Below are positions 14,156 through 23,180 of a stretch of DNA of 31,921 nt, one piece after another; positions within the stretch are counted from its first letter, which is position 1, and every line of letters begins with the position of its first letter. A program made the translations under genes and the position numbers. This stretch comes from Candidatus Omnitrophota bacterium (GTDB lineage: Bacteria > Omnitrophota > Gorgyraeia > Gygaellales > Profunditerraquicolaceae). The DNA lies in the NCBI GenBank assembly GCA_028713875.1, contig JAQTNM010000001.1:1-31921 (forward strand). Reading direction: 5' to 3'. Below the pieces are notes generated by a model. That model saw only the letters and a program-made list of their open reading frames with translations, made no database searches and was not told the DNA's origin.

Positions 14156-15652
14156 TTAGGGGCAACCGCCCCTGATGGCTTCGATTAAAGCCCTGGCTTT
14201 ATTTACCGATTCGTTATACTCTCTTATCGGGATAGAATCCGCCACAATACCTCCTCCCGCCTGAATATAAGCGGTCTTATCCTTTACCAATATTGTACGT
14301 ATGGTTATACACGTGTCCATATTATGCGAAAAACTGAAATATCCCACGCATCCTGCATAAGGTCCGCGTTTGGATATTTCCAGCTCATCAATAATCTCCA
14401 TTGCGCGGATCTTCGGGCTGCCGCTGACTGTACCCGCAGGAAAACAGGCCCGCAAAACACCGTAAATATCGTATTTTTTGTCCAGTTTTGCCTTTACTTC
14501 AGTAACCAGGTGCATTACGTGCGAATATTTTTCCACCGTCATAAATTCGCTTAAAGTTACCTGCCCGGATCTGGCAATGCGGCCCAAATCATTCCTGCCC
14601 AGGTCAACCAGCATGATGTGTTCGGCTCTTTCCTTGGCGTCATTTAAAAGCTCCTTCTCTAAGACCTCATCCTCGGCCTCGGTTTTACCCCTGGGCCTGG
14701 TGCCGGCAATAGGCCGCGTCTGGACCGTGCCGTCCTCGCAACGCACCAGCATCTCCGGCGAAGTCCCAACCAGGCTGATTTCTTTTAATTTGAGGAAAAA
14801 CATGTAGGGCGAAGGATTCAGGCTCCTTAAATTGCGATAAATGGAAAACGGCTCATGTGAGATCTTTATTTTGAATCTCTGCGATAAAACGACCTGGATG
14901 ATATCGCCTTTCCTGATATACTCCTTGGCCCTGGTTACGATATCACAGAAGGAACGCCTGGTAAAATTGGAACTTATTTTTATCCCGGTTGATTTTACTT
15001 TCCTGGCCTCTTGCGCCGCCTGCCTGCCAAATTGTTCCTGGATGGCTTCTATTTTCTTGACCGCAGCATCATAAACCCTGATCTTCTGTTTTAACGAAAG
15101 TTTTCCTGCCTTTTCAGGCAGCATAACATTAGCTACTATTTTTATGGTGTGATTGACATGGTCAAAGATCAGGATCGTATCGGTAAGGATAAATACGCAA
15201 TCCGGCACATTCAATTCATCCGGGTTTTTGTCCGGTATTTCTTCAAAGAACCTGACCGTATCATAACCTATATAACCTACCAGGCCGCCGTAAAAACGCG
15301 GCAGGCCGGCGCAGGGGGCAGCCTTGAAATCTTTCATCAGGTTCCTGATCTCATCCAGGGGGTCAGTGCCGGTGGTAAATCTTTTTACGGACTTCGCATG
15401 AGGATAGATGATCTGGATATCCCTGGCCTTGCTCCTAAAAATAAGCGCGGGGTTCGCCCCCAGGAAAGAATACCGGGCAGTCTTCTCCCGGCCCTCTACT
15501 GATTCCAGCAAAAACGCATAATCGTCGCTTTTAGCAATCTTTAAGAACGCCGATACCGGCGTATCCAAGTCGGCGTTTATCTGATTATAAACGGGGATGA
15601 CGTTTCCTTTTTTGCAAAGTTTTAGGAATTCCTTTAATGACGGTTTAATCAT
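14156..15652 (-). CDS. trpE: Anthranilate synthase component I
   Basis: AFLLES and NPSPYM (Trp-feedback motifs), GTSPEMLV, RPIAGTRPRG, EHIMLVDLGRND, GTVSGSPKIRAMEII. Confidence 0.9.
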   Translation of the reverse strand: MIKPSLKEFLKLCKKGNVIPVYNQINADLDTPVSAFLKIAKSDDYAFLLESVEGREKTARYSFLGANPALIFRSKARDIQIIYPHAKSVKRFTTGTDPLDEIRNLMKDFKAAPCAGLPRFYGGLVGYIGYDTVRFFEEIPDKNPDELNVPDCVFILTDTILIFDHVNHTIKIVANVMLPEKAGKLSLKQKIRVYDAAVKKIEAIQEQFGRQAAQEARKVKSTGIKISSNFTRRSFCDIVTRAKEYIRKGDIIQVVLSQRFKIKISHEPFSIYRNLRSLNPSPYMFFLKLKEISLVGTSPEMLVRCEDGTVQTRPIAGTRPRGKTEAEDEVLEKELLNDAKERAEHIMLVDLGRNDLGRIARSGQVTLSEFMTVEKYSHVMHLVTEVKAKLDKKYDIYGVLRACFPAGTVSGSPKIRAMEIIDELEISKRGPYAGCVGYFSFSHNMDTCITIRTILVKDKTAYIQAGGGIVADSIPIREYNESVNKARALIEAIRGGCP

Positions 15653-15655
15653 ACT

Positions 15656-15991
15656 TTAAATGATCCTTCGGTAAAAACAGGAGCGCATGCCCGTGTGGCA
15701 GGCTACCCCTACTTGACGCACTTTTATGACCAAGGCATCCATATCGCAATCGTAAGCGATCTGTTTTACATACTGATAATGGCCGGAAGTCTCTCCTTTA
15801 ACCCAGTATTCCTTGCGGGAACGTGACCAGAAACAGGTCTTTCCCAGTTTTAGCGTCCGGCGCAAAGATTCCCTATTCATATAAGCGAGCATCAGGACCT
15901 CTGCGTTCCTGTAATCCTGTATTACCGCCGGGATTAGCCCCCTTTTATCATATTTTAAGCTTTTCAGATCGAACTTATTCTTTTTGCTCAT
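15656..15991 (-). CDS. hisI: Phosphoribosyl-AMP cyclohydrolase (stand-alone, no HisE fusion)
   Basis: [32 protein letters not shown]. Confidence 0.97.
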
Positions 15992-16761
15992 AGACGTACA
16001 GGTACTCCTTTTCCTTTCAGGTATTCTTTAACCTGGCGTATCGAATATTCCCGGTAGTGAAAAATCGAAGCAGCCAAGGCCGCATCAGCTCGGGCTTTTG
16101 TCAATACATCGTAAAAGTGTTCTAATTTGCCCGCGCCCCCTGAAGCAATAACCGGGACATCCACGGCATCAGCGATCGCCCTGGTCAGCTCCAGGTCATA
16201 ACCGTCCTTGGTGCCGTCATAGTCCATGCTGGTCAGAAGTATTTCGCCTGCCCCTAAAGCTACTGCCTTCTTTGCCCATCCCAGGGCGTCTATGCCCGTA
16301 GGGGTCCTGCCTCCGTTTATATAAACTTCCCATGAAGCGGCTCTGTTGCCTGAATCCTGATTGCGTTTGGCATCAATTGCCAGGACTATGCACTGGCTGC
16401 CGAATTTACCGCAGGCTTTGGAGATCAGATCGGGATATTTGATTGCCTGCGTGTTCATGGAAACTTTTTCTGCGCCGGCATTCAATAAATCGCGGATGTC
16501 CTGGACATCCCTTATGCCGCCGCCGACAGTAAAAGGCATGAATATATTCTTGGCGATCCTCTCTACCAGACCTACAAGCGTTTTCCTGTTCTCTACGCTG
16601 GCAGTAATATCCAGGAATACCAGCTCATCCGCCTGCTGCCGGTCATACACTTTAGCTACTTCCACGGGGTCTCCGGCGTCGCGCAACCCCAGGAACTTTA
16701 CGCCCTTTACCACCCGGCCTTCTTTTATGTCAAGGCAGGGAATGATGCGTTTGGTCAGCAT
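15988..16761 (-). CDS. hisF: Imidazole glycerol phosphate synthase cyclase subunit
   Basis: [48 protein letters not shown]. Confidence 0.99.
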
Positions 16762-16773
16762 TTTTTAAGGAAT

Positions 16774-17226
16774 TTACTTTACCTTCCTATCCAGGTATCC
16801 TTTTAACAGGTTCCAGGTCTGCCTTCCCACTTTACCGTTTACCGTCAGGTTATTCGCTCTTTGAAAAGCCCTGACTGCTTCCCGCGTCTTCCTGCCCATC
16901 TTCCCGTCAATAGCGCCGGAATAATATCCCGCATTCTTCAGGGCGGTCTGGATCTGTTTAACTGTCGGGCGTGATTTCGTTTCGCGCATCGCCATGCGGC
17001 CTGTTGTTCTCTCTTCAAGGGCGCTCTGTTCTTCTGCTTTATTCAAAGACTCTTTTAAAGAATTGATCTCTTCGTCCTTAGCCTGCAGTTGCGTCTGTAA
17101 TACGCTGATCTGGTTCCTTAATCCCTGCATCTCCATATCCGTCTTTTTGCGGCCAGTGGCGCATCCGGACAGAGCTGTTACAAAACCTGCTAAAACAATC
17201 AGGAGTACCAACTTATTCTTCAGCAT
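16774..17226 (-). CDS. Lipoprotein with a coiled coil and a C-terminal PG_binding_1 domain (150 aa)
   Basis: Strong SD AGGAGGAGGT before ATG 17226, lipobox LSG-C, heptad segment, then QIQTALKNAGYYSGAIDGKMGRKTREAVRAFQRANNLTVNGKVGRQTW. Confidence 0.88.
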   Translation of the reverse strand: MLKNKLVLLIVLAGFVTALSGCATGRKKTDMEMQGLRNQISVLQTQLQAKDEEINSLKESLNKAEEQSALEERTTGRMAMRETKSRPTVKQIQTALKNAGYYSGAIDGKMGRKTREAVRAFQRANNLTVNGKVGRQTWNLLKGYLDRKVK

Positions 17227-17287
17227 CTTTACCTCCTCCTCCGTAGTAAACGGACACCGGCCTATCATTTAAGGCCAGGCGTCTTTT

Positions 17288-18010
17288 TTAACTTAATTTC
17301 AAGGCTTCGGATAAAGTAAACCTGCCCTCATACAAAGCCTTGCCTATAATTACTCCGGCTAATCCCTCTTTTTCCAGTTTCTTTAATTTTTTGATATCTT
17401 CGAGCGAAGACACGCCTCCCGAAGCTATCACTGACAGCCCCGTCTTAAGCAATCTCTTGGTGGCCTGTATATTGGGCCCGGATAAAGTGCCGTCCCTGGA
17501 TACATCGGTATAGATCACCTGTTTAAACCCCAGCTCTCTTAATGCGCAGGCAAACTCCAGGGCATCCATATTAGTATCAGCGCATCCCGCCTGCCAGCCT
17601 TTAGTCAGGACCTGCCCGTCTTTAGCATCAATGCTGACGACGATATTATCTTTAAACTTTTTAAATATCCGGCTCAAAAACGCCTCATCCTCTGCAGCCT
17701 TTGTGCCCAGGATAACCCTGGACACACCGCAATCAAGTAGCGTCTTTATGACTTCCTCCGTTCTTATCCCGCCTCCAACCTGAACAGGCGCTCCCGCGGC
17801 CTTGACGATCTCTTTGACCACATCTATATTACCGGGTATGCCGGTATTAGCGCCGTCCAGGTCAACAACATGGATAAGCCTGGCTCCCTGACTTGCCCAG
17901 TGCCGGGATGTCTTGACCGGATCTCTTGAATATACCTTTTTGTCTAACCTGCCCTGGATAAACCTGACCACGCATCCTTCCTGTATATCCACTGCAGGGA
18001 TAATCAACAT
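17288..18010 (-). CDS. hisA: ProFAR isomerase HisA
   Basis: IIPAVDI, IHVVDLDGA, QVGGGIR, YTDVSRDGTLSGPN, IASGGVS. Confidence 0.98.
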   Translation of the reverse strand: MLIIPAVDIQEGCVVRFIQGRLDKKVYSRDPVKTSRHWASQGARLIHVVDLDGANTGIPGNIDVVKEIVKAAGAPVQVGGGIRTEEVIKTLLDCGVSRVILGTKAAEDEAFLSRIFKKFKDNIVVSIDAKDGQVLTKGWQAGCADTNMDALEFACALRELGFKQVIYTDVSRDGTLSGPNIQATKRLLKTGLSVIASGGVSSLEDIKKLKKLEKEGLAGVIIGKALYEGRFTLSEALKLS

Positions 18011-18615
18011 AGCCGGACAAAATTTTTTAACATCTTCAAGCCATTTTCCTGGCTCTTCTCAGGATGGAACTGCGCGCCATAAACATTATCCTGCCAGGCC
18101 ACGCAGGCAAATTGCCTGCCGTATTCGCAACTGGCTGCAGCAACCGATGCCTTAGCCGGATCAGGATAATAGGAATGACAGAAATAAACATAGGATCTGT
18201 TATCTATGTCTTTTAGCAAAGGGCAGTTTTTATTTTTTATTTCCAGTTCATTCCAGCCCATATGAGGCACCTTAAGGCCTTTACTTGCCGAAAACTTCTT
18301 AACTACCCCGCCCAATACCCCTAAACCCTTTACGCCCGGAGCCTCCTGGCTCTCCCGGAATAAAAGCTGCATGCCTAAACAGATACCCAGGAAAGGCTTT
18401 TTTTTCTTTATCTGCCCCTTGATCAACGCGACCAGTCCCTGTTTTTTCAATTCTGACATGGCATCGCCAAAAGCGCCCACCCCGGGCAGGACCAGTTTCT
18501 GCGCATCCTCAATGTCTTTAATCCGGTTAGTAACAATTGCGGTTGCTCCGGCAAGCTCTAATGCCTTCTGCACGCTATGTATATTACCCATGCCGTAATC
18601 AATGATCGCAATCAT
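18004..18615 (-). CDS. hisH: Imidazole glycerol phosphate synthase glutaminase subunit
   Basis: IIDYGMGNI, LPGVGAF, GICLGMQ, PHMGWN, QFHPEKS. Confidence 0.98.
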   Translation of the reverse strand: MIAIIDYGMGNIHSVQKALELAGATAIVTNRIKDIEDAQKLVLPGVGAFGDAMSELKKQGLVALIKGQIKKKKPFLGICLGMQLLFRESQEAPGVKGLGVLGGVVKKFSASKGLKVPHMGWNELEIKNKNCPLLKDIDNRSYVYFCHSYYPDPAKASVAAASCEYGRQFACVAWQDNVYGAQFHPEKSQENGLKMLKNFVRLC

Positions 18616-19230
18616 CTAATCAATGACACCCTTCGTGGAAGGTATACCTTTCCTGCGGGGGTCGATTTGCGTAGCCTGGTCCAGGGCGAGCCCTAAGGCT
18701 TTAAATACCGGCTCCAGCGTCTTATGCACATCTGTGTTGACCGGATCGACTTTTATATTTAAATTCATCCCTAAATGCTTGGCAAGGGAATCAAAAAAAT
18801 GCTCTGCATCGCGAAGATTGTATTCTTCAAAATGTTCTTCTGTTAATTTTTGAGGAATTATAGATCCTGTTTTTATTTTTAATAGAAATGACCCCCTCCC
18901 GCTGATATCCACAACAGCATTAGCCACTACTTCTTCCATCGGCACGCTGGCAGAGCCAAACCTCCTGATGCCTTTTTTATCAGCCAGCGCCTTCTTAAAA
19001 GCCTGACCCAATACGATACCGATATCTTCGTTGGTATGATGCTTGTCGATCTCCAAGTCGCCTTTGCAGGAAATTGCCAGGTCGAAGAGTCCATGAAAGG
19101 CGAATAATTCCAGCATGTGATCTAAAATCCCTATGCCGGTATCAATCCTGGCCTGGCCGCTTCCGTCTATATTCAGCTTAACGGTAATATCCGTTTCTTT
19201 AGTCTTTCTCTTTAGTATGGCTTTTCTCAT
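18616..19230 (-). CDS. hisB: Imidazoleglycerol-phosphate dehydratase (monofunctional; second metal motif divergent)
   Basis: RKTKETDI, DHML, DKHHTNEDIGI, GIRRFG, DISGR, VFKALGLAL, PSTKG. Confidence 0.93.
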   Translation of the reverse strand: MRKAILKRKTKETDITVKLNIDGSGQARIDTGIGILDHMLELFAFHGLFDLAISCKGDLEIDKHHTNEDIGIVLGQAFKKALADKKGIRRFGSASVPMEEVVANAVVDISGRGSFLLKIKTGSIIPQKLTEEHFEEYNLRDAEHFFDSLAKHLGMNLNIKVDPVNTDVHKTLEPVFKALGLALDQATQIDPRRKGIPSTKGVID

Positions 19231-19244
19231 TTTCGTCCTCGCTA

Positions 19245-19279
19245 CCCCTATCTACTGTCTACTGCCTACTATCTACTGT
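19245..19279. repeat. Heptamer tandem repeat (CTACTRN x4) in the hisD-hisB gap
   Basis: cccctat ctactgt ctactgc ctactat ctactgt. Confidence 0.75.
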
Positions 19280-19281
19280 TT

Positions 19282-20505
19282 TTAAAAGCGCGCCTTTAAC
19301 GATTCCAAATGCTTCTCCAGCCCTTCTATCCCGGCGATCTTCTCCAGCGGTTCGCGCATGCGCTCAAGGGATTTTTTGGAATAACTTATTATATGGCTGC
19401 TTTTAATAAAGTCAAGCGTAGATAGCCCCGAAAAGAACCTGGCTGTGCCGCAGGTAGGCAGGACATGGCTTGGCCCCGCAACGTAATCGCCTACTGCCGC
19501 CGGGCTGTAAGGCCCCAGGAATATCGCCCCGGCATTCCTTATGTCTTTAACCAGCCTTTGGGGATTTTTGACCAGGATTTCAAGGTGTTCCGGAGCAATG
19601 CAGTTAGCAATCTCAACAGCCTCTTTAAGATTTCTGGCCAGTATAATAAAGCCGTTTGTGCCTTCTGTTTGTGATTTTATTTCCTTGGCCAGGCTTCTGG
19701 AATTGGTGATCAATATAGCCAGGCCTCCGGCATGCTCTGCCTGGGCCTTCAGATCAGCGATAATGAATTTGGGCTCGCTGTAACGGTTGGCAATGATCAC
19801 CAGTTCGGTGGGCCCGGCGATCATATCTATATCCACATAGCCGAATACCTGCCTTTTTGCCTCACTCACATACATATTGCCCGGTCCGACTATCTTATTT
19901 ACTTTAGGAACGGTCTTGGTCCCGTAAGCCAGGGCAGCGATCCCTTGAGCTCCGCCCACGCGGTAGATCTCGTCCACTTTCAAAAGGTCGGCTATAACCA
20001 GGATGTGCGGATTTATGCGGCCTTCTTTATCGGGCGGGCTGATCAAAGCTATTTTCTTTACCCCCGCTATCCTTGCCGGCAGCACGGTCATATAAACCGA
20101 AGAGACCAAGGGTGCAGTGCCTGCGGGTATATAGACACCTACGCGCTCCAAGGGTGTGTAATTTTCGCCTAAAACCACTCCTTCAGAGTCTTTCATCCTC
20201 CAGGATTTTTTAATGGTCTTACGGTAGAACCTGTTCACATTTTCAATGATCGTCTTTAAGCTGGAAACGAAATTCGGGGTAATATTCTGGTAGGCGCCGC
20301 TGATATCCATCTGCGAGACTTTCAGCTGTTTCGGGGTTAATTTAACGCCGTCAAACTTACGGGTGTATTTTATCAGCGCCTCATCCCCAAGGAGACGGAC
20401 ATCTTCAATGATCTGACGCACTCTTTCCTGCAGGCGCCTTGAACGGATGAACTGGCGGCCGTAGATCTTTTCTAACTGTTTACTGCCCGAACGTATGATT
20501 TTCAT
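19282..20505 (-). CDS. hisD: Histidinol dehydrogenase
   Basis: GVYIPAG, IVGPGNMYV, IDMIAGPTE, QAEH, APEHLE, GDYVAGPSHVLPT. Confidence 0.98.
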   Translation of the reverse strand: MKIIRSGSKQLEKIYGRQFIRSRRLQERVRQIIEDVRLLGDEALIKYTRKFDGVKLTPKQLKVSQMDISGAYQNITPNFVSSLKTIIENVNRFYRKTIKKSWRMKDSEGVVLGENYTPLERVGVYIPAGTAPLVSSVYMTVLPARIAGVKKIALISPPDKEGRINPHILVIADLLKVDEIYRVGGAQGIAALAYGTKTVPKVNKIVGPGNMYVSEAKRQVFGYVDIDMIAGPTELVIIANRYSEPKFIIADLKAQAEHAGGLAILITNSRSLAKEIKSQTEGTNGFIILARNLKEAVEIANCIAPEHLEILVKNPQRLVKDIRNAGAIFLGPYSPAAVGDYVAGPSHVLPTCGTARFFSGLSTLDFIKSSHIISYSKKSLERMREPLEKIAGIEGLEKHLESLKARF

Positions 20506-23180
20506 AGTTTAACTTTGGCAATAATCTCCTTTAATTCTTGCATCGCCTTCTCCAGATTTTCGGGTTTTGTGCCTCCTGCCTGAGCGAAATCTTTCCTGCC
20601 TCCGCCTGAACCACCGATAGTCGGCGCAATCTGACGGGCCAATGCCGTTGCATCCAGCCCCCTAGATACTAAATCCTGCGTAACTGCCACAACTAGATAC
20701 GCCCTATCTTGTTCATTATCCTGCGAACCTAAAGCAACTACCCCCTGCTTTAATCTTTCTTTTACCTTATCCGTCATAAGGCGCAAGGTATTCATATCTA
20801 AACCGGGCTCAAGCGAAAAAGCTACATTTATATCATTTATTTTTACTACTTTGTTTATAAGCCTGGGGATAGCGTCCTTCAGGCTGTTATTAATCTGGAG
20901 TCTATGTTTTTTTTCTTTTTCTTTCAATTCCTTTAACTGTTCCCCTTTTCTGGCTTCTTTGGCTGTTTTCTTCTCTTGATCTTTGATGAACTGTTCCGCA
21001 AAAATTCCAGTTACGCCTTCGATTCTACGGATACCGCTGGATACTGAACTTTCACTAATAATCTTTATCAGGCCTATATTATTAATATTATCTAGATGCG
21101 TCCCGCCGCACAACTCTTTTGAAATATCCCCAATGCCTACGACGCGTACATTTTCACCGTATTTTTCCTCAAAAAAGGCCAACGCTCCGATTTTTTTTGC
21201 CTCTGCCAAAGTCATTTCCTTGAAGTTTACTGCCTCGCCCTTAGAAACATAGCTATTAGCCACTTCTTCAACCCGGGCAATCTCTTCTTTAGATAAACCC
21301 TTAAAATGCGTAAAGTCAAAACGGAACTTCTCCACAGCTACCAAAGAACCCTGTTGTCGTACATGATCACCTAAAACTTTTTTTAAAGCTGCTTGCAATA
21401 TATGCGTGGCTGTATGGTTCTTGGCTATATTAAGCCTGCGTTCACTATTTATCTTGGCTGTTACACTATCACCTTTTTTAAAAGAACCGGAAATAAATTT
21501 GCCGATATGCAGGAAAACATTATCGGCCTTTTTCGTATCCAGGACCTCAAAGACATTTCCGGCATTGATGATTTTGCCGGTGTCGCCGACCTGGCCCCCG
21601 GATTCCGCGTAAAACGGGGTCTGGTCCAGAACAATTTCTAATTTATCCCCGGATAAAACCTCTTTTACCTCCTTGCCGCCCTTTAAAATAGCCAGGATTT
21701 TAGCTTCTGCGGAATTTTTCTCATAACCGATAAATCTTGTCTCATCCAGTTTTAAATCTAACTTCTTGGCGTCAAAGACATCGCCCTTCATCTTACTTTT
21801 TGCTTTGGAGAATTCCCTTAAATTATTAAGTCTGTCTTTCACTTTATCGGCTATAGCGAGGGGGTCATTTTTTAGCCCCCTCTCTTCTATCAAATTAGAA
21901 AAATGGTTAGTAGATATGTCTATGGGTATCCCGTTAGTTTCGTAAAGGCGGACGACCGATATCGCAACAGAGCTAGCCGTATTTGAACTAATATGAATGA
22001 CCCCATCATCACCTTTAGGTTGTGTTTGTAAATCTTCTTCAATGCGCTCCAATGCTGATTTTTCATTACTTTCGAGTATGTCATCACTGCATTCTAAAAT
22101 TTTAATAAAATTACTTTCTTCATTTAAAATAACCAGGGCAATATCCTCCTGCTTATCCTTGAGATCCGGATAAGGGACATGCATAACAAGCGCAACCAAA
22201 GGTACGAGTCTATTCAAAAACGGACTATTAATCCCCAATGCCCTCAAATGCAGCACGCTTTTGCGGATTAATTTACGGATTACGTATCCGCGGCCTTCGT
22301 TAGAAGGCAAGATCCCATCGTATATCGCTAAGGTAATCGCCCGAATATGATCAACTACGGCATAAACCAGGAGTTTATTCTCGCCTTCGTTGTTCTCTAT
22401 AGCAGAGGTAATTTCTTTTATCAATGGCCGGAACAAATCAGTCTCAAAATTATTCTCCGCTCCCTGCATTACCGCAGCCAGCCTCTCAAGGCCCATGCCG
22501 GTATCAATATTCTTCTGCGGCAGGGGCTCCAAAGCCCCTCCTTCTTTACGGTTAAACTGCGTAAAGACCAGGTTCCAGACCTCTACAAACCTTCCGCAAT
22601 CACAGGATGGGTCGCAAACAGCTTCACCGCACCCCAGTTCCTTGCCACGGTCAAAGAATATTTCCGAACAGGGGCCGCAGGGGCCGTTAGGGCCTTTTTG
22701 CTTTGCTTGCGAAGGCCAAAAATTCTCTTTATCCCCCAGCTTCAGTATCTTCTGCGCAGGAAAGCCAGCCTCATCTTTCCATATCTTATAGGCCTCATCG
22801 TCATCCTTGTAGACTGAGACCCAGAGCCTTTCTTTATCAATCTTGAGCTCTTGCGTAAGGAATTCCCAGGCCCAGAGGATCGCTTCCTTTTTGAAATAAT
22901 CCCCGAAGGAGAAATTTCCCAGCATTTCAAAAAAGGTATGGTGGCCGGAGGTTTTACCTACCTTATCCAGGTCATCCGTACGCAGGCAGCGCTGCGCGGT
23001 TGCCGCGCGCCGGTAGTCTGCGACCAGGCCCAAGAATTGTTTTTTGAACTGGTTCATCCCCGCCGGAGTAAACAACACCGTGGGGTCATCCCCGGGCACC
23101 AGAGAATCACTGGCAACTATCTTATGTTTCCTGGCTTTGAAAAACTCTAAAAATTTTTCCCTCAATGCGTCTGCGTTCAT
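20502..23180 (-). CDS. alaS: Alanine--tRNA ligase
   Basis: HHTFFEMLGNFSFGDYFK, EVWNLVFTQF, IDTGMGLER, PSNEGRGY, editing motifs NHTATH and ELCGGTH, C-Ala GGSGGGRKDFAQAGG. Confidence 0.99.
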   Translation of the reverse strand: MNADALREKFLEFFKARKHKIVASDSLVPGDDPTVLFTPAGMNQFKKQFLGLVADYRRAATAQRCLRTDDLDKVGKTSGHHTFFEMLGNFSFGDYFKKEAILWAWEFLTQELKIDKERLWVSVYKDDDEAYKIWKDEAGFPAQKILKLGDKENFWPSQAKQKGPNGPCGPCSEIFFDRGKELGCGEAVCDPSCDCGRFVEVWNLVFTQFNRKEGGALEPLPQKNIDTGMGLERLAAVMQGAENNFETDLFRPLIKEITSAIENNEGENKLLVYAVVDHIRAITLAIYDGILPSNEGRGYVIRKLIRKSVLHLRALGINSPFLNRLVPLVALVMHVPYPDLKDKQEDIALVILNEESNFIKILECSDDILESNEKSALERIEEDLQTQPKGDDGVIHISSNTASSVAISVVRLYETNGIPIDISTNHFSNLIEERGLKNDPLAIADKVKDRLNNLREFSKAKSKMKGDVFDAKKLDLKLDETRFIGYEKNSAEAKILAILKGGKEVKEVLSGDKLEIVLDQTPFYAESGGQVGDTGKIINAGNVFEVLDTKKADNVFLHIGKFISGSFKKGDSVTAKINSERRLNIAKNHTATHILQAALKKVLGDHVRQQGSLVAVEKFRFDFTHFKGLSKEEIARVEEVANSYVSKGEAVNFKEMTLAEAKKIGALAFFEEKYGENVRVVGIGDISKELCGGTHLDNINNIGLIKIISESSVSSGIRRIEGVTGIFAEQFIKDQEKKTAKEARKGEQLKELKEKEKKHRLQINNSLKDAIPRLINKVVKINDINVAFSLEPGLDMNTLRLMTDKVKERLKQGVVALGSQDNEQDRAYLVVAVTQDLVSRGLDATALARQIAPTIGGSGGGRKDFAQAGGTKPENLEKAMQELKEIIAKVKL

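Follow-up and report, generated by a model that had tools for sequence, protein, structure and literature searches.

A HisB protein of an Omnitrophota bacterium that lacks one of the eight manganese ligands of imidazoleglycerol-phosphate dehydratase

The hisB gene, its operon and its product

The window, i.e., the whole 31,921-nucleotide stretch of a Candidatus Omnitrophota contig that was analysed, carries an operon with hisB, the gene for imidazoleglycerol-phosphate dehydratase (IGPD), as its third member (Table 1). Around hisB, the his operon is otherwise intact, as the first-pass annotation of this DNA had stated, with Pfam matches in the order hisD-hisB-hisH-hisA-x-hisF-hisI. The slot alaS-hisD-hisB-hisH-hisA is common to the variant gene described here and to canonical sister hisB genes, and the variant gene sits in the hisB slot of the hisD-B-H-A-F-I cluster in every relative with enough flanking sequence. 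The alaS stop and the hisD start overlap by 4 nt (20502-20505), and these two genes are kept next to each other in variant and canonical Omnitrophota loci alike; the peptidoglycan-binding (PG_binding_1) gene at 16774-17268 (-), between hisA and hisF, is kept in about 30 related loci.

Table 1. Features of the hisB locus, with positions in the window, strand and supporting evidence
Feature	Position	Strand	Evidence or remark
Operon alaS, hisD, hisB, hisH, hisA, PG-binding lipoprotein, hisF, hisI, trpE	14156..23180	(-)	Pfam
hisB, imidazoleglycerol-phosphate dehydratase (IGPD), 204 aa	18616..19230	(-)	PF00475 match, AF2 model
His38 of DHML (Arabidopsis His47), Mn1 ligand, intact	19117..19119	(-)	Relatives, ligand list
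Motif 1, His64-His65-Thr-Asn-Glu68 (Arabidopsis His73, His74, Glu77), intact	19027..19041	(-)	Invariant, 120/120
Glu99 (GAA) of PMEE, equivalent to Arabidopsis Asp108	18934..18936	(-)	Carboxylate that hydrogen-bonds the Mn2-bound water HOH1 in Arabidopsis
Variable loop, residues 113-136	18823..18894	(-)	Alignment gaps; pLDDT 59-70; lowest identity to close relatives
His144 of EHFF (Arabidopsis His145), true fourth Mn2 ligand, intact	18799..18801	(-)	Residue counting
Asn158 (AAT), replaces the conserved LH His (Arabidopsis His159), non-ligand	18757..18759	(-)	Alignments, ligand lists
His169 (CAT), Mn1 ligand, intact	18724..18726	(-)	Invariant in 120 relatives
Lys170 (AAG), replaces Mn2 ligand His170 (Arabidopsis numbering)	18721..18723	(-)	Alignments, ligand table
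Glu173 (GAG), Mn1 ligand and proposed catalytic residue, intact	18712..18714	(-)	Relatives, ligand list
Pro174, clade marker inside helix 168-187; canonical Ala/Ser/Thr	18709..18711	(-)	Variant versus canonical counts; AF2 helix limits

The window's genome (1.46 Mb, 88.5% complete) holds hisG and hisC on other contigs, and its HisI is the 111-aa cyclohydrolase alone; hisE (PRA-PH, PF01503) gave no match in this assembly, the completeness of which leaves the absence of hisE unestablished. A second hisB elsewhere, which the first-pass annotation had named as a possible refutation of its reading, was not encountered, for the genome contains a single IGPD match. Likewise, exactly one match is present in 57 of the 61 genomes from the same family and order, including all 27 of high quality, and the four genomes that have none are 74-85% complete. 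Using two independent metagenome contigs with Lys170 relatives (L117 and L118) for comparison, dN/dS amounts to 0.05-0.08 for hisB, 0.05-0.07 for hisD and 0.04-0.14 for hisH, ratios that are rough because synonymous sites are near saturation; hisB is under purifying selection.

The product matches PF00475 with 168.7 bits (gathering score 27) along profile positions 1-144 of 144, and among the NCBIfam HisB models it lies above the cut-off of NF002114 (191.7 versus 189 bits) and below those of the other 12 of 13. The IGPD fold is a four-helix bundle between two beta-sheets, and homo-oligomerisation, to an Mn-dependent 24-mer that dehydrates IGP, is a property of the family. This fold is recovered for HisB in an AF2 model (pLDDT 91.3, pTM 0.89) that superposes onto solved IGPDs with a TM of 0.82-0.87; a Foldseek search with the model returned IGPDs as all of its best 29 matches (query-normalised TM 0.74-0.87). 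The model is uncertain solely in the C-terminal loop and in an enlarged loop at about residues 121-140; relative to plant IGPDs, HisB has 8 additional residues in the loop that links the SGR motif to the EHFF helix. The substrate and catalytic residues Glu12, His46, Arg90, Arg112, Lys177, Ser198 and Lys200 are present, all of them invariant in a 90-sequence alignment except His46, which is nearly so; the one exception is Leu42 in place of Arabidopsis Gln51, a phosphate contact at a position that varies family-wide. HisB thus probably works like, and by most tests belongs to, IGPD / HisB (EC 4.2.1.19).

The 3' half of the gene contains the AT-rich tract noted previously, in which 62 of the 180 nt at 18721-18900 are G or C (34.4%), a value reached in just 1.2% of 180-nt windows against a mean of 47.2% for the whole window. 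Correspondingly, GC3 is 0.28 in codons 111-170, 0.54 before and 0.62 after them; a similar dip occurs in L118 and a weaker one in L117. These codons span the least conserved part of the protein, with 60-75% identity to two close relatives versus 82-97% elsewhere, and the variable loop of residues 113-136 forms the core of the tract. A recombinant or foreign origin of the tract was considered and rejected, since segment-wise identities give no switch of the nearest relative along hisB. The tract resembles a product of AT drift in the region under least constraint.

Manganese ligands of HisB

In Arabidopsis IGPD, Mn1 is held by His47, His74, His169 and Glu173, and Mn2 by His73, Glu77, His145 and His170 (PMC4509728, Table 2). 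The same eight ligands are listed for Medicago HISN5, with numbering offset by 68 and the Mn labels swapped, and they have the highest conservation rank across kingdoms (PMC10978614); a cryo-EM paper on IGPD gives an identical set. These ligands were mapped onto HisB by counting residues along phmmer alignments to the solved IGPDs 2F1D and 8QAV, anchored at Glu21, His47, His73/74, Glu77, Asp108, Arg121, His169/170, Glu173 and Lys177.

The C-terminal segment reads exactly as first quoted, with Asn at the LH position (18757-18759) and HK instead of HH (His169-Lys170, 18721-18726). In the alignment to solved IGPDs, Asn158 is matched with the TLHI His and Lys170 with the second of the two His in SHHIIEA, and the register is free of gaps from His169 to FKA. 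The remaining motif readings likewise stand: DHML (His38) and DKHHTNED (His64, His65, Glu68) are intact, and PMDE has become PMEE.

From these substitutions, the first-pass annotation had concluded that two ligands of one manganese site were lost, and here only half of the claim holds. The change from HH to HK removes a ligand of the site that had been named, but the LH His is not a ligand: the ligand set assumed in that annotation had one wrong member, and by residue counting the fourth Mn2 ligand, Arabidopsis His145, falls on the EHFF His, intact in HisB as His144. The LH His corresponds to Arabidopsis His159, which is in none of the ligand lists of the three structure papers, and no role for it is named in them. 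One ligand is therefore lost rather than two, and the proposal that both substitutions fall in the same site fails because the Asn158 position maps to no ligand. HisB accordingly retains the four Mn1 positions (His38, His65, His169, Glu173) and three of Mn2 (His64, Glu68, His144), i.e., seven of the eight residues His47, His73, His74, Glu77, His145, His169, His170 and Glu173 that define the family's metal sites. By this mapping, it lacks one of the eight manganese ligands, His170, and Asn158 appears as a separate relaxation at a non-ligand position.

Other residues were examined as replacements for the missing ligand and rejected. Positions at which His is at least 80% conserved in the clade are solely 38, 46, 64, 65, 144, 152 and 169; His152 is not invariant, is present in canonical forms as well and is located at the distal end of helix 139-153, and His133 is private to the query. 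Asp167 is no novelty, since Asp or Asn is the family norm there (N in 82 and D in 50 of 150 representatives), and the co-occurrence of Lys63 with Lys170 is inconsistent.

With respect to solved enzymes, Arabidopsis thaliana IGPD2 / HISN5 (4MU0, 4MU3, 4MU4; PMC4509728) has the same fold (TM 0.83-0.86) at 42-43% identity, and shares with HisB the Mn1 ligands, three of four Mn2 ligands, the catalytic Glu21 and Glu173, the phosphate-binding Arg, Lys and His, and the C-loop. Going from Arabidopsis to HisB, the differences are His170 to Lys, Asp108 to Glu, His159 (LH) to Asn, Ala174 to Pro and Gln51 to Leu. Medicago truncatula HISN5 (8QAV-8QAY, 7OJ5; PMC10978614) is the best sequence match among solved structures (E 4.8e-46), and HisB departs from its eight-ligand conservation at His238, the equivalent of Arabidopsis His170.

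Conservation and origin of the variant

Among the 120 best database relatives (69-86% identity; those named by source are mostly labelled Omnitrophica), His38, His64, His65, Glu68, His144, His169 and Glu173 are kept in 120 of 120, and so is Glu99. Position 170 is occupied by Thr in 105, Lys in 7, Ala in 7 and Val in 1, with Ser in further loci; Lys170 is fixed in the query's nearest relatives, and the 6 of the 119 other relatives that have it comprise these (P0002, P0004-P0006) and two others. This spread, together with the finding that no residue co-varies with Lys170, speaks against the earlier suggestion of a Lys amine taking the place of the cation. In the survey of relatives for the Asn/Lys pair that had been advised, Asn158 occurs in 112 of 120 (the rest being Ile, Ser, Ala or Val) and Lys170 in 7 of 120. 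Inside the clade as a whole, position 158 is variable (N/S/D/I/G/C/T/F/Y/H).

For the tree, 109 loci were taken from species-representative genomes, of which 71 are without His170; with the query added, the 72 non-His170 rows make up one side of one branch (SH-aLRT 91). Nearby tree groups are other Omnitrophota IGPDs with the canonical His-His, Asp99 and Ala174. The loss of His170 is thus reconstructed on this tree as a single change within Omnitrophota. The canonical sister Omnitrophota IGPDs (L040, L041, L043, L045, L051, L054, L055) are 54-60% identical to HisB, share the slot alaS-hisD-hisB-hisH-hisA-hisF-hisI-trpE and group with the variant clade on a branch with a support of 99, within which the order is unresolved. 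They differ from HisB in having kept His-His, Asp99, the LH His and Ala174, and in having Asp at position 144 where HisB has His.

Pooling 193 variant and 126 canonical sequences, position 99 is Glu in 192 of the former (the exception, L052, has Asp99) versus 5 of the latter, and position 144 is His in all 193 versus 39, the canonical sequences otherwise having mostly Glu, Asp or Gln. Pro174 occurs in 182 variant sequences and in no canonical one; early-branching variant lineages have Thr, Ser or Ala at this position, so that the change from Ala174 to Pro came later. The change from Asp108 to Glu, on the other hand, is placed by the tree together with the loss of His170. It is a shared derived state and not a statistical covariation, for the tree holds only one independent contrast between positions 99 and 170, on which no statistical claim can be founded.

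Across the whole family, His170 is present in 138 of 150 representatives, and those without it, beyond two of this clade, are mostly fragments or degenerate copies; the LH His is found in 123 of 150. A DNA pattern for D-x-H-x-x-L-E-P-x-F-K, searched in 401 sampled genomes of the phylum, matched in 74, among them 58 of 60 in the window's own family, none with His at 170, and with 0 control matches. The pattern occurs in most sampled families of the window's order, and carriers elsewhere are sporadic. The sole match outside the class, G140:C6:37916-37948, comes from another class of the phylum; in its sequence, D-V-H-Q-P-F-E-P-V-F-K, Gln replaces His170 and position 174 is Pro, and it may have arisen independently or by transfer.

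Among the family representatives, P0139 (197 aa) is a canonical IGPD except that Leu replaces His170, and P0137 (389 aa), in which two stretches matched, resembles a tandem IGPD whose ligands are degenerate. In a variant sub-lineage (L015, L022, L024-L027, L030, L031, L033-L036, L088, L089, L096, L101), the phosphate-binding His (Arabidopsis His55, query His46) is replaced by Trp. A canonical His-His clade of mostly Omnitrophota-labelled MAGs (L058, L062, L064, L065, L066, L078, L080) carries Glu in place of His145 and Val in place of the LH His, lacks three residues immediately ahead of the first HH motif and reads TMD in place of PMD; the Val indicates that certain canonical forms, too, can do without the LH His.

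Interpretation of the second manganese site

When substrate binds to Arabidopsis IGPD, a water leaves Mn2, which is then five-coordinate and goes on to capture an imidazolate nitrogen (PMC4509728). His170 lies in the Mn2 equatorial plane with His73, Glu77 and the water HOH1, the proposed base, which forms hydrogen bonds with Glu77 and Asp108. Since the loss of His170 is fixed across the clade, the variant enzyme is probably still functional, with its metal site rebuilt, and the reading that we favour, with moderate confidence, is that HisB is the organism's working IGPD in a lineage-specific form, active and with a remodelled Mn2 site. On the tree, His170 was given up once, near the base of the clade that takes up the whole of the window's Omnitrophota family and the greater part of its order. 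Mn2 would still be bound on a 2-His-1-carboxylate set (His64, Glu68, His144), as the conservation of these residues suggests, and water or the longer carboxylate of Glu99 would occupy the vacancy left by His170. The side chain of residue 170, Lys here and Thr in most relatives, would be a bystander, because the replacements are too varied to be functional. Pro174 would remove the amide that normally caps the residue-170 carbonyl in helix 168-187, which hints at local reshaping. Mn2 retention, the role of Glu99 and enzyme activity are what we infer from sequence, and there are points on the other side: His64, Glu68 and His144 could be kept for another purpose, e.g., hydrogen-bonding the substrate imidazole, and the link between Glu99 and His170 amounts to one evolutionary event, with Asp99 in L052 and Glu99 in five canonical sequences. 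The narrow pass at only one of 13 NCBIfam HisB cut-offs, the Leu in place of Gln51 and the lack of a hisE match also weigh on this side.

The alternative closest to the remodelled site is an IGPD with one metal, as the first-pass annotation had envisaged, in which Mn2 is lost and His64, Glu68, His144 and Glu99 hydrogen-bond the imidazole N3 proton; in the Lys170 sub-lineage, the amine may then supply a positive charge. A first-shell Mn2 ligand is missing in every member of the clade, Lys170 is constant among the query's closest kin, and, since it is Mn2 that switches coordination and takes up the imidazolate in Arabidopsis, a different solution would become visible at this site. Nevertheless, the three other Mn2 ligands are invariant in 193 sequences, with His144 kept more strictly than in canonical enzymes; the Thr, Ala, Ser or Val at position 170 of most members cannot mimic a cation, and, as nothing co-varies with Lys170, a Lys serving as the cation would fit a small sub-lineage only. 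We regard a one-metal enzyme as unlikely on balance, while giving it more weight than the two readings that follow.

A HisB of changed activity, or an inactive one, which would have drifted towards another substrate or a non-catalytic function in a cell that takes histidine from its environment or host, is considerably less probable. Omnitrophota are described (PMC10066038) as small cells with host-dependent traits, the protein scores below 12 of the 13 HisB equivalog cut-offs of NCBIfam, and the 88.5%-complete genome gave no hisE match. Set against this are the place of the gene in the his cluster of every relative with enough flank, the retention of all substrate and catalytic residues save the family-variable Gln51 (Leu42), a dN/dS equal to that of hisD and hisH, and the absence of any further IGPD from the genomes of all 27 high-quality relatives. 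A sequencing or assembly artefact, which the first-pass annotation had listed among its refutations, or a recently imported AT-rich patch would account for the unusual composition of 18721-18900, but the probability of either is negligible. The same residues, with the same AAG codon for Lys170, occur in independent contigs from other samples (L117 and L118), which excludes an assembly error; in addition, the variant state is clade-wide and the nearest relative stays the same along the gene.

In the literature searched, no description was found of an IGPD without His170 or of an Omnitrophota HisB, and PMC10066038, on Omnitrophota, mentions neither histidine nor manganese. The reach of the finding is moderate and lies in enzymology; it does not amount to a new system. 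IGPD is a herbicide and antibacterial target, and its published mechanism turns on Mn2. It is conceivable, though doubtful, that the whole order makes histidine by way of an IGPD with the second metal site empty or loosely occupied; if that were true, the two-manganese 'coulombic trap' and the Mn2 coordination switch would not be obligatory. As a natural, conserved, single-copy family without His170, these enzymes would offer a ready-made test of how much of the coordination sphere is required, in which the takeover of the vacant position by a neighbouring carboxylate and a shift in metal preference could be tested.
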